Sequence record: ON528745
Strand: one strand, 5' to 3'
DNA length: 64,000 bases
From: Shigella phage ESH35
Below, one piece after another: positions 1,359 through 46,931 of the stretch (within the stretch, counting starts at the first letter, position 1; every line of letters starts with the position of its first letter). The position numbers and the translations under genes are program-made. A model generated the notes under the pieces. That model worked only from the letters and a program-made list of their open reading frames with translations, had not been told where the DNA came from and ran no database searches.

Positions 1359-1400
1359 AAATAATAAATACCCTTATCTATTTAAGGTAAGGGTTTTATT

Positions 1401-1874
1401 ATGTTATTGACTGGCAAATTATACAAAGAAGAAAAACAGAAATTTTATGATGCACAAAATGGTAAATGCTTAATTTGCCAACGAGAACTAAATCCTGACG
1501 TTCAAGCTAATCACCTCGACCATGACCATGAATTAAATGGACCAAAAGCAGGAAAGGTACGTGGATTGCTTTGTAATCTCTGCAATGCCGCAGAAGGTCA
1601 AATGAAGCATAAATTTAATCGTTCTGGCTTAAAGGGACAAGGTGTTGATTATCTTGAATGGTTAGAAAATTTACTTACTTATTTAAAATCCGATTACACC
1701 CAAAATAATATTCACCCTAACTTCGTTGGAGATAAATCAAAGGAATTTTCTCGTTTAGGAAAAGAGGAAATGATGGCCGAGATGCTTCAAAGAGGATTTG
1801 AATATAATGAATCTGACACCAAAACACAATTAATAGCTTCATTCAAGAAGCAGCTTAGAAAGAGTTTAAAATGA
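1401..1874 (+). CDS. 49: endonuclease VII (Holliday junction resolvase)
   Basis: 157 aa as in T4 gp49; Cys-rich N-terminus CLICQ...HLDHDH...CNLCN; directly upstream of nrdD. Confidence 0.85.
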   Translation: MLLTGKLYKEEKQKFYDAQNGKCLICQRELNPDVQANHLDHDHELNGPKAGKVRGLLCNLCNAAEGQMKHKFNRSGLKGQGVDYLEWLENLLTYLKSDYTQNNIHPNFVGDKSKEFSRLGKEEMMAEMLQRGFEYNESDTKTQLIASFKKQLRKSLK

Positions 1875-3688
1875 CAATTGAAAAAGAAATTGAAGGATTG
1901 ATTCATAAAACTAATAAAGACCTTTTGAACGAGAATGCTAATAAAGATTCTCGTGTTTTTCCAACTCAACGGGACCTTATGGCTGGTATTGTGTCTAAAC
2001 ACATTGCCAAAAATATGGTCCCGTCTTTTATTATGAAAGCGCATGAAAGCGGAATTATTCATTTCCATGATATTGATTATTCCCCTGCTCTTCCATTTAC
2101 TAATTGTTGTTTAGTAGATTTAAAAGGAATGCTTGAAAACGGATTTAAGCTAGGTAATGCACAGATTGAAACTCCTAAATCAATTGGAGTTGCTACTGCA
2201 ATTATGGCACAAATTACTGCGCAAGTTGCTTCTCACCAATACGGCGGAACGACTTTTGCGAATGTAGATAAAGTACTTTCTCCTTATGTTAAACGCACCT
2301 ATGCAAAACATATTGAGGATGCAGAAAAATGGCAAATCGCTGATGCGTTAAATTATGCTCAATCTAAAACAGAAAAAGATGTATACGATGCATTCCAAGC
2401 TTATGAATATGAAGTAAATACTCTCTTTAGTTCAAACGGACAGACTCCTTTTGTAACAATTACATTTGGTACGGGAACTGACTGGACTGAACGAATGATT
2501 CAGAAAGCAATTCTGAAAAATCGTATTAAAGGTCTCGGTCGTGATGGGATAACTCCTATTTTCCCTAAGCTTGTTATGTTCGTTGAAGAAGGTGTTAATC
2601 TTTATAAAGACGATCCGAACTATGATATTAAGCAGCTTGCTCTAGAGTGTGCAAGCAAAAGGATGTATCCTGATATTATTTCAGCTAAGAACAATAAAGC
2701 TATCACCGGCTCATCTATTCCTGTTTCTCCAATGGGTTGCCGCAGTTTCTTGAGTGCGTGGAAAGATTCAACCGGTAATGAAATTCTTGATGGACGTAAT
2801 AATCTTGGTGTTGTAACACTGAATCTTCCTCGTATTGCGTTGGATTCTTATATTGGAACACAGTTCAATGAACAGAAATTTACTGAATTGTTCAATGAGC
2901 GAATGGATTTATGTTTTGAAGCTTTGATGTGTAGAATTAGTTCCTTAAAAGGAGTTAAAGCGACTGTTGCTCCTATTCTTTATCAAGAAGGTGCATTCGG
3001 GGTTCGTCTTAAACCTGATGACGACATAATTGAGTTATTTAAAAACGGTAGAAGTTCAGTGTCTTTAGGATACATTGGTATTCATGAATTGAATATTCTT
3101 GTCGGTCGTGATATTGGACAAGAAATTTTAACTAAAATGAATGCTCGTCTTAAACAGTGGGCTGAAAGAACTGGGTTTGCTTTTAGTTTGTATTCGACTC
3201 CTGCTGAAAACCTTTGTTATCGCTTCTGTAAACTTGATACAGAAAAATATGGAAGTGTAAAAGATGTTACCGATAAAGGATGGTACACTAACAGTTTCCA
3301 TGTTTCAGTAGAAGAAAATATTACTCCGTTTGAAAAGATTTCTCGCGAAGCCCCATATCATTTCATTGCGACAGGTGGTCACATTTCTTATGTTGAACTT
3401 CCTGATATGAAAAATAACCTAAAAGGTCTTGAGGCTGTCTGGGATTATGCTGCACAACATTTAGATTATTTTGGTGTTAATATGCCAGTAGATAAATGTT
3501 TTACATGTGGAAGTACCCATGAAATGACTCCTACTGAAAACGGATTTGTTTGTTCTATTTGTGGAGAAACTGATCCTAAAAAGATGAACACAATAAGAAG
3601 AACATGTGGTTATTTGGGAAATCCGAACGAACGCGGATTTAATCTCGGCAAAAATAAAGAAATCATGCATAGGGTTAAGCACCAATGA
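1871..3688 (+). CDS. nrdD: anaerobic ribonucleoside-triphosphate reductase, uninterrupted
   Basis: 605 aa; C-terminal CxxC...CxxC zinc site and glycyl-radical region; ATGA overlap with gene 49. Confidence 0.95.
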   Translation: MTIEKEIEGLIHKTNKDLLNENANKDSRVFPTQRDLMAGIVSKHIAKNMVPSFIMKAHESGIIHFHDIDYSPALPFTNCCLVDLKGMLENGFKLGNAQIETPKSIGVATAIMAQITAQVASHQYGGTTFANVDKVLSPYVKRTYAKHIEDAEKWQIADALNYAQSKTEKDVYDAFQAYEYEVNTLFSSNGQTPFVTITFGTGTDWTERMIQKAILKNRIKGLGRDGITPIFPKLVMFVEEGVNLYKDDPNYDIKQLALECASKRMYPDIISAKNNKAITGSSIPVSPMGCRSFLSAWKDSTGNEILDGRNNLGVVTLNLPRIALDSYIGTQFNEQKFTELFNERMDLCFEALMCRISSLKGVKATVAPILYQEGAFGVRLKPDDDIIELFKNGRSSVSLGYIGIHELNILVGRDIGQEILTKMNARLKQWAERTGFAFSLYSTPAENLCYRFCKLDTEKYGSVKDVTDKGWYTNSFHVSVEENITPFEKISREAPYHFIATGGHISYVELPDMKNNLKGLEAVWDYAAQHLDYFGVNMPVDKCFTCGSTHEMTPTENGFVCSICGETDPKKMNTIRRTCGYLGNPNERGFNLGKNKEIMHRVKHQ

Positions 3689-29089: not shown

Positions 29090-29097
29090 TATAAATA
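29090..29097 (+). promoter_or_regulatory. late promoter TATAAATA upstream of soc
   Basis: exact TATAAATA about 30 nt upstream of soc start. Confidence 0.55.
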
Positions 29098-29127
29098 ATC
29101 ATGTAATTTAAATAAAAGGAGAATTAC

Positions 29128-29385
29128 ATGGCTAGTACTCGCGGTTATGTTAATATCAAAACATTTGACCAAGCAGTTGATGGTGGTACAATTCAGGGTA
29201 AAGAAATTTCTGTAGCTTTCCCTCTTTATTCTGATGTTCACAAAATTTCTGGTGCTCATTATCAGACATTCCCTTCTGAAAAAGCAGCATATTCTACAGT
29301 ATATGAAGAAAATCAGCGTACTAAATGGATCACTGCTAATGAAGGTCTTTGGACTGTTACACCGACACCAGGTGTCGGTGGTTAA
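29128..29385 (+). CDS. soc: small outer capsid protein
   Basis: 85 aa; closely matches recalled T4 Soc. Confidence 0.8.
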   Translation: MASTRGYVNIKTFDQAVDGGTIQGKEISVAFPLYSDVHKISGAHYQTFPSEKAAYSTVYEENQRTKWITANEGLWTVTPTPGVGG

Positions 29386-31536: not shown

Positions 31537-31565
31537 TTTACTTTCCTTTCTAACGATGATATGAT
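31537..31565 (+). promoter_or_regulatory. early-promoter-like element upstream of modB
   Basis: TTTACT, 17 bp, TATGAT. Confidence 0.4.
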
Positions 31566-31591
31566 AGCTTCTGAAGTATACGGAGGCTATC

Positions 31592-32215
31592 ATGATTATT
31601 AATCTTGCAGATGTTGAACAGTTATCTATAAAAGCTGAAAGCGTTGATTTTCAATATGATATGTATAAAAAGGTCTGTGAAAAATTTACTGACTTTGAAC
31701 AGTCAATTCTTTGGCAATGTATGGAAGCCAAAAAGAATGAAGCTCTTCATAGGCAGTTGAATAAAATCATTAAAAAGCATTTAACTAAATCACCTTATCA
31801 GTTATATCGTGGTATATCAAAATCGACAAAAGAACTCATTAAAGATTTACAAGTTGGAGAAGTGTTTTCAACGAACAGGGTAGATTCATTTACTACTAGT
31901 TTGCACACAGCATGTGGTTTTTCTTATGTTGAGTATTTCACTGAAATAATATTTCGCTTAAAAACTGATAAAGCTTTTAATTATTCTGACCATATCAGCG
32001 ATATTATACTTTCTTCTCCTAATACTGAGTTTAAGTACACGTATGAAGATACTGGTGGGCTAGATTCAGAGCGTACTGATAACTTAATGATGATTGTGCG
32101 TGAACAAGAATGGATGATTCCAATTGGAAAGTATAGAATAACTTCTATTTCAAAAGAAAAATTACACGATTCATTTGGAACATTTAAAGTGTATGATATT
32201 GAGGTAGTTGAATGA
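31592..32215 (+). CDS. modB: ADP-ribosyltransferase (ModB-like)
   Basis: 207 aa; R...S-T...E catalytic triad pattern; paralogue of next gene. Confidence 0.65.
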   Translation: MIINLADVEQLSIKAESVDFQYDMYKKVCEKFTDFEQSILWQCMEAKKNEALHRQLNKIIKKHLTKSPYQLYRGISKSTKELIKDLQVGEVFSTNRVDSFTTSLHTACGFSYVEYFTEIIFRLKTDKAFNYSDHISDIILSSPNTEFKYTYEDTGGLDSERTDNLMMIVREQEWMIPIGKYRITSISKEKLHDSFGTFKVYDIEVVE

Positions 32216-36730: not shown

Positions 36731-36759
36731 TTTACTTCCTCGGTTAGTTGTGGTATTAT
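36731..36759 (+). promoter_or_regulatory. T4-type early promoter
   Basis: TTTACT, 17 bp, TGgTATTAT. Confidence 0.55.
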
Positions 36760-36786
36760 AACACCATAGCTACTGAGGATAATAAA

Positions 36787-46874: not shown

Positions 46875-46903
46875 TTTACAAGACTGTTCTTCCGTGGTAC
46901 TAT
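46875..46903 (+). promoter_or_regulatory. T4-type early promoter cassette
   Basis: TTTACA, 17 bp, TGgTACTAT. Confidence 0.6.
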
Positions 46904-46931
46904 TACCCTATCAACTACGGAGGAACAGAAA

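Follow-up and report, generated by a model that had tools for sequence, protein, structure and literature searches.

The 42-nt intergenic region between pin and gene 49 of Shigella phage ESH35 is predicted to fold, as RNA, into a hairpin that encloses the ribosome-binding site of gene 49 and carries a late-promoter motif in its 5′ arm. This element is the known translational switch of T4 gene 49, here in a close T4 relative, and is in that sense already known. We consider it highly probable that it acts in cis so that full-length endonuclease VII is made only late in infection. The structure and its significance, its orthology with T4, the covariation of its stem, the conserved motif and the change in accessibility come directly from the present analysis. 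In what follows, ‘the window’ is the whole stretch of DNA analysed (64,000 nt, record ON528745), and positions are counted from its first letter.

The window is recognisable from its sequence as part of a Tequatrovirus (T4-like) genome. Region 1150–1650 matches 699 phage records and shows 99.8% identity with Shigella phage JK38 and 96.8% with T4 strain GT7. The gene upstream of the hairpin, pin (873–1358, + strand), codes for the PinA protease inhibitor, as judged from its ORF, a Pfam match to Inhibitor_I24 (PF10465, E = 4e-48) and the annotation of relatives as pin. The downstream ORF (1401–1874, + strand) is gene 49, encoding recombination endonuclease VII (157 aa) with the Pfam domains PF02945 (Endonuclease_7) and PF09124 (Endonuc-dimeris). 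Its tblastn search returned 100% identity matches carrying the endonuclease VII annotation, and the identity of its product with gp49 of T4 GT7 is 1.00 (to two decimals). The gene order nrdC-49.3-49.2-49.1-pin-49-nrdD, with nrdD beginning at 1871, is that of T4. Pfam content, identity and gene order all identify the gene that follows the hairpin as the ortholog of T4 gene 49, located 3′ of pin.

Transcripts reading through from pin, the upstream early gene, would carry the complete hairpin. A sigma-70-like promoter (TTTACA-17-TATAAT, 11/12 matches) lies at 804–832 on the + strand, within a 49.1-like ORF just 5′ of pin; it is the best such match in the first 4 kb of the window and could be a source of early read-through RNA across the hairpin. 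Inside gene 49, a MotA-box-like TGCTTCA (1783–1789) is followed 13 nt further on by TATAAT (1803–1808), both on the + strand. The position of this pair corresponds to that of PnrdD, the MotA-type middle promoter of T4 nrdD, which lies inside gene 49 at T4 coordinate 46440 (PMC2988021). With such a promoter within gene 49, nrdD and the downstream early genes could be expressed without transcripts that cross the hairpin. The nrdD gene itself (1871–3688, + strand) is one unbroken 605-aa ORF, in contrast to T4 nrdD, which is split by a group I intron with I-TevII; the ESH35 gene has no intron.

A preliminary description of this DNA had reported a 7-bp stem, ACCCTTA/TAAGGGT, with an 11-nt loop, ending 6 nt before the gene 49 ATG. 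The two arms are exactly as described, at 1370–1376 and 1388–1394, separated by 11 nt and followed by 6 nt (1395–1400) before the ATG at 1401, but these distances hold for the 7-bp core only. In the minimum free energy (MFE) fold, three more inner pairs (U1377-G1387, C1378-G1386 and U1379-A1385) reduce the loop to the 5 nt AUUUA (1380–1384). Moreover, the hairpin does not stop short of the start codon: beyond a bulged U1369, an outer helix of 8 bp joins 1361–1368 to 1395–1402 and runs into the ATG, pairing its A and U. The full hairpin (1361–1402, + strand) thus has 18 bp, in an outer helix of 8 and an inner helix of 10 that are separated by a 1-nt bulge, and is closed by a 5-nt loop. Its outer helix pairs the A/U run of the promoter motif in the 5′ arm (AUAAUAAA, 1361–1368) with the 3′ arm UUUAUUAU (1395–1402), in which the start codon's A and U lie. 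Its inner helix is formed by ACCCUUAUCU (1370–1379) and AGGUAAGGGU (1385–1394), the latter including the Shine-Dalgarno (SD) sequence UAAGGG at 1388–1393. Both helices are present in the MFE and centroid structures alike. The SD-like AAGG placed by the preliminary description in the loop and right arm was found at 1384–1387 and 1389–1392.

A 7-bp inverted repeat alone is unremarkable; such repeats are estimated to arise often by chance in AT-rich DNA of this length (64 kb). The complete structure stands apart. Its fold energy over 1361–1402 is −18.1 kcal/mol versus −8.6 ± 2.4 for dinucleotide shuffles (z = −3.99; 0/200 shuffles as stable), which ranks it in the top 0.14% for stability among all 42-nt windows on the + strand of the 64 kb, as one of 13 such sites. 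The same hairpin predominates when the sequence is folded in a 160-nt context. Folding of the complement of the + strand RNA is weaker by 4.2 kcal/mol. A search of Rfam with the hairpin gave no family at threshold, the best match being ohsC with 27 bits versus a gathering score of 50; we judged the sub-threshold matches (ohsC, PyrR, rnk leader) to be chance matches to hairpin-containing families.

The near-late-promoter noted earlier over the left arm was located as AATAAATA at 1363–1370 (+ strand), identical in T4 and differing from the consensus TATAAATA by an A at −13. In the compilation of 50 T4 late sites by Geiduschek & Kassavetis (2010, PMC2988020), not all of them proven in vivo and their relative strengths unknown, 32 are perfect TATAAATA and 9 carry A at −13, the latter being exactly the ESH35 motif. 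Judged by its letters, AATAAATA is a legitimate late-promoter variant, and the commonest natural one of the T4 late promoter. Since the late motif occupies −13 to −6, with little conservation of T(−13) among T4-like phages (Nolan et al. 2006, PMC1524935), transcription is predicted to start 6 nt past the motif, at about A1376 (+ strand) and inside the 5′ arm. RNA from this predicted start is devoid of the whole outer 5′ arm and of six of the ten bases of the inner 5′ arm. Over the whole window, both strands included, the octamers are fewer than expected: TATAAATA occurs 4 times versus 9.7 ± 3.4 and AATAAATA 5 times versus 13.9 ± 3.4. Such depletion fits selection against stray late promoters, the A(−13) variant included. 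It also means that the motif is not present above chance by count, so that the argument for it is its position and conservation. The RefSeq T4 record NC_000866 annotates no promoter or regulatory feature at the pin–49 site.

We then compared the accessibility of the ribosome site in silico in the two kinds of RNA. The probability of the SD (1389–1393) being unpaired is 0.001 in a read-through RNA (1250–1500) and 0.23 in an RNA starting at 1376. Opening 1385–1413 would cost about 20 kcal/mol in the former, where the opening costs computed lie at 18–21 kcal/mol, and about 11 in the latter. Folded in local context, the read-through RNA reaches −20.4 kcal/mol versus −2.9 for the late leader, which is essentially unstructured. 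When long-range pairing is allowed in the late RNA (1376–1500), the SD is still paired about 77% of the time. In the in silico structure of upstream-initiated transcripts, both the SD and the start codon are base-paired. These models agree with the suggestion of the preliminary description that the hairpin may sequester the ribosome-binding site. The difference is found family-wide: in 65 loci, modelled with a late RNA that begins 6 nt past the motif, read-through RNA needs a median of 15.7 kcal/mol to open −15 to +5 and late RNA 4.1, the two costs being at least 5 kcal/mol apart in 63/65 loci.

These properties are those described for T4. In the 1988 study of Barth, Powell, Trupin and Mosig (Genetics 120:329), T4 gene 49 was reportedly found to be transcribed both early and late, from different promoters. 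The long early transcripts are said to have their first ribosome-binding site masked by a hairpin, and gene 49 proteins of 18 and 12 kDa to start at the AUG and at an internal GUG, respectively. The hairpin block of T4 gene 49 evoked in the preliminary description is borne out by two reviews. That of Uzan & Miller (2010, PMC3014915) lists gene 49 with e, soc and I-TevI among T4 genes in which a helix sequesters the SD and/or AUG, with less binding of 30S subunits, and treats early transcripts as extending into gene 49. That of Edgell et al. (2010, PMC2988022) gives the general design, a late promoter sited such that late transcripts are made without the sequence needed for the inhibitory structure, and cites Barth et al. 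1988 (ref. 60) for the same mechanism; the ‘39’ printed there is read by us as a typo for 49.

The T4 element (strain GT7) belongs to the same gene, at the same position, and has the same sequence as ESH35 1361–1402 bar one T. ESH35 carries this extra T at 1395–1398 (GGGTTTTATT versus GGGTTTATT in T4 GT7), where it adds a pair and reduces the bulge from 2 nt in T4 to 1 nt. In the same 85-nt frame, the T4 fold has −17.9 kcal/mol versus −19.7 for that of ESH35. Bulge variants with and without the extra T were both found among close relatives. In T4 and ESH35 alike, the helix takes up SD and AUG, and the 5′ arm carries AATAAATA. The interpretation given in the preliminary description is therefore supported; its observation was real but understated, the only corrections being the size of the hairpin and the absence from ESH35 of the internal GUG start of T4.

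By analogy with the T4 literature, from which the actual 5′ ends, read-through and differential translation in ESH35 are inferred, the switch would operate as follows. Early or middle transcripts starting upstream and passing through pin would contain the whole 1361–1402 hairpin, whose pairing of the SD (1388–1393) and of the AU of the AUG would prevent 30S subunits from binding. Later, RNA polymerase associated with gp55 would recognise AATAAATA at 1363–1370 and begin transcription within the 5′ arm, near A1376. The resulting late RNA, made without 1361–1375, would not be able to form the hairpin, and its ribosome-binding site would be open. Endonuclease VII cuts branched DNA, and its early synthesis would be expected to damage T4-like recombination and replication intermediates. 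The switch is a textbook case of the timing of a late protein encoded within an early transcription unit; it would account for the sequence between pin and gene 49 and speaks against a plain terminator annotation of the hairpin.

To what extent the element is shared was examined on gp49 loci collected from annotated phage genomes (at least 15 Straboviridae lineages) and from IMG/VR, which gave 97 loci with 67 distinct upstream regions. A TAAATA between −39 and −23, abutting the 5′ arm of a hairpin, is present in 65 of the 67 regions (ATAAATA in 53), and in 65/67 of them, from many genera, a hairpin masking the SD lies next to it. Position −13 is most often A (35 of the motif-bearing regions), followed by G (15), T (10) and C (5); perfect TATAAATA occurs at the aligned position in Mosigvirus and in several Klebsiella and other phages. 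The predicted +1 is an A in 57/65 loci, and its column in the alignment of gp49 upstream regions is at least 90% A. In nearly every sequence the hairpin is directly 3′ of the motif and its 3′ arm holds the SD (GAGGU or AAGGU), ending at or in the AUG. The stem arms themselves vary (CCCUUAUCU/AGGUAAGGG, AGUUCAUCU/AGGUGAACU, CUAUCAUCU/AGGUGAUAG, AUGACACC/GGUGUUAU).

Covariation was tested on a plain MAFFT alignment, unfitted to any structure, with column shuffles (n = 500) as reference. The 10-pair inner helix (alignment columns 31–40 with 55–64) is paired in 84% of cells versus 62% in column shuffles (0/500 reach this value), and 133 cells are changed on both sides versus 47 expected (0/500 shuffles). 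Controls with slid partners gave 41–52% pairing; the covariation score is 0.471 versus at most 0.153 with partners slid by 1–3 columns. RNAalifold alone recovered the five promoter-proximal pairs, each with 13–41 compensatory cases. The SD-proximal pairs are less variable, as the constraint on the SD itself would lead one to expect. Stems that differ in sequence yet stay paired point to strong covariation, by statistics that are only partly adjusted for phylogeny. At one pair of the stem, 44/62 sequences have a G-U wobble, which fits a structure formed at the RNA level on the + strand. An element acting at the DNA level or on the minus strand is unlikely, given the G-U wobble pairs and the weaker fold of the complement.

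The motif and the hairpin accompany gene 49 irrespective of the upstream gene, be it pin, nrdC, a hypothetical ORF or one that is mom-like. In some Tequatroviruses, G3F6 and PP01 among them, an extra 177-nt ORF of 58 aa is found between pin and gene 49 (locus L003, 746–922; locus L004, 667–843). The sequence just 5′ of their hairpin (including aatgttttacaatactt) matches that at the end of pin in ESH35, and hairpin and promoter stay on gene 49. KVP40-like Vibrio phages (loci L019 and L090) have no hairpin and no TAAATA at −45 to −20, and are the sole such lineage sampled. Their gp49 has its upstream neighbours on the opposite strand (divergent), with TATAAACA at about −41, so that no read-through RNA is expected. 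This lack of a switch, in a single lineage, goes in the predicted direction but remains anecdotal.

The internal GUG start does not follow the same pattern. T4 annotates a second, nested CDS from an internal GUG at codon 53; in ESH35 codon 53 is GUA (GTA, 1557–1559, + strand), which is not a start codon here, and the T4 nested-protein arrangement, looked for as an in-frame GUG at this codon, is absent from ESH35. Over the 42 loci whose gp49 is at least 75% identical (within L001–L051), codon 53 is GTG in 2, GTA in 6, GTT in 32, ATA in 1 and ATT in 1. Unlike the hairpin/promoter switch, the nested start is not conserved and falls outside the conserved design, and from codon comparison looks T4-specific. 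Codon 68 is a universal in-frame AUG with GAAGG in front of it; it lies within invariant catalytic residues, and its conservation therefore says nothing about initiation. Tentatively, and with slightly more doubt than trust, we propose that the promoter-in-hairpin switch is an ancestral, family-wide feature of gene 49, that the internal GUG is a T4-specific add-on, and that the hairpin of the T4 clade may also partly terminate early pin transcripts. If so, compensatory evolution has preserved the switch in phages infecting Escherichia, Klebsiella, Serratia, Acinetobacter and Aeromonas, and early transcripts yield no codon-53 product in ESH35 and most of its relatives.

Termination is indeed the rival explanation with the most to be said for it: the hairpin would be a Rho-independent terminator or attenuator ending early pin transcripts before gene 49, instead of or, more plausibly, besides masking the SD. 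Intrinsic terminators likewise consist of a hairpin with basal G-C pairs followed by a U-run, and the ESH35 stem has three G-C pairs at its base, then UUUU. A consensus scan flags 1370–1394 followed by TTTATTATGT (10 pairs, 4 of them G-C), several GenBank records of relatives label the site ‘terminator’, and the MotA-type promoter that nrdD has of its own in gene 49 would leave the downstream early genes independent of read-through. A terminator, however, has no need to contain an SD or to abut an AUG. Unlike intrinsic terminators, the ESH35 hairpin encloses a promoter motif together with the SD and start codon of the gene that follows, and only 4 of the 10 pairs of the stem are G-C; termination as the sole function would leave the conserved TAAATA unexplained. 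T4 reviews, moreover, have early transcripts reaching into gene 49 (PMC3014915). Terminator-like traits, defined as at least 2 G-C basal pairs and no fewer than 3 U among the first 4 nt, are found in 13/15 T4-like stems but in 0/52 other gp49 upstream regions, which have kept the promoter motif and a hairpin over the SD. As these traits are not kept outside the T4-like group, the conserved function is masking and not termination. We regard the terminator explanation as unlikely on the whole, the more so as a sole function; a supplementary attenuator role in the T4 clade, acting in the same direction as masking, is possible.

Conserved structured RNA is also compatible with recognition by a protein, and the hairpin might serve RNA stability or processing, or be an operator bound by a protein, for instance a nuclease or translational repressor site. 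T4 RNA operators and endonuclease sites are listed at other initiation regions (gp32, gp43, RegA, RegB) in PMC3014915. Conservation is nevertheless limited to the SD, the promoter motif and base pairing, and does not extend to the sequences of the loop and distal stem, which speaks against sequence-specific protein recognition; the T4-type SD is without the GGAG RegB motif, and no Rfam family reached threshold. This explanation is very improbable. There is even less room, practically none, for a functionless chance inverted repeat in AT-rich intergenic DNA. How common the 7-bp core alone is estimated to be by chance in 64 kb would favour it, but neither the stability of the whole hairpin against shuffles (z = −3.99, none of 200 as stable) and its rank in the top 0.14% of local folds, nor the compensatory changes across genera would be expected of it; the observed covariation, reached by 0/500 shuffles, excludes it. 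For the translational switch, the family-wide covariation is a modest extra, adding evolutionary support to the 1988 T4 model.

The logic is identical in T4 soc, e (lysozyme) and I-TevI, likewise late genes within early transcription units, with a late promoter in the 5′ part of a hairpin and the SD and/or AUG under its 3′ part. These are other genes, their hairpin sequences are unrelated, and soc has a perfect TATAAATA with mainly the AUG masked. A scan of all NATAAATA motifs in the window returned one other site with the geometry of gene 49, that of soc, which served as a positive control. At this site (29090–29140, + strand), TATAAATA at 29090–29097 is associated with an 11-bp hairpin over the AUG at 29128 (−20.6 kcal/mol, z = −4.06). 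The 85-aa ORF at 29128, 3′ of a dCTPase (gene 56)-like ORF, is one which, from its sequence, we take to be Soc.

Finally, three of the 13 most stable + strand hairpins (31555–31597, 36737–36779 and 46884–46927) are located just 3′ of an early-promoter-like AAAAAGTTGTTTAC. Each has the −10 in its 5′ arm or loop and an SD (GAGG or GGAGG) in its 3′ arm, with the ATG at 31592, 36787 and 46932, respectively. As far as can be read from the predicted folds and motifs, their geometry is the same, a promoter inside an SD-masking hairpin, but with early promoters.
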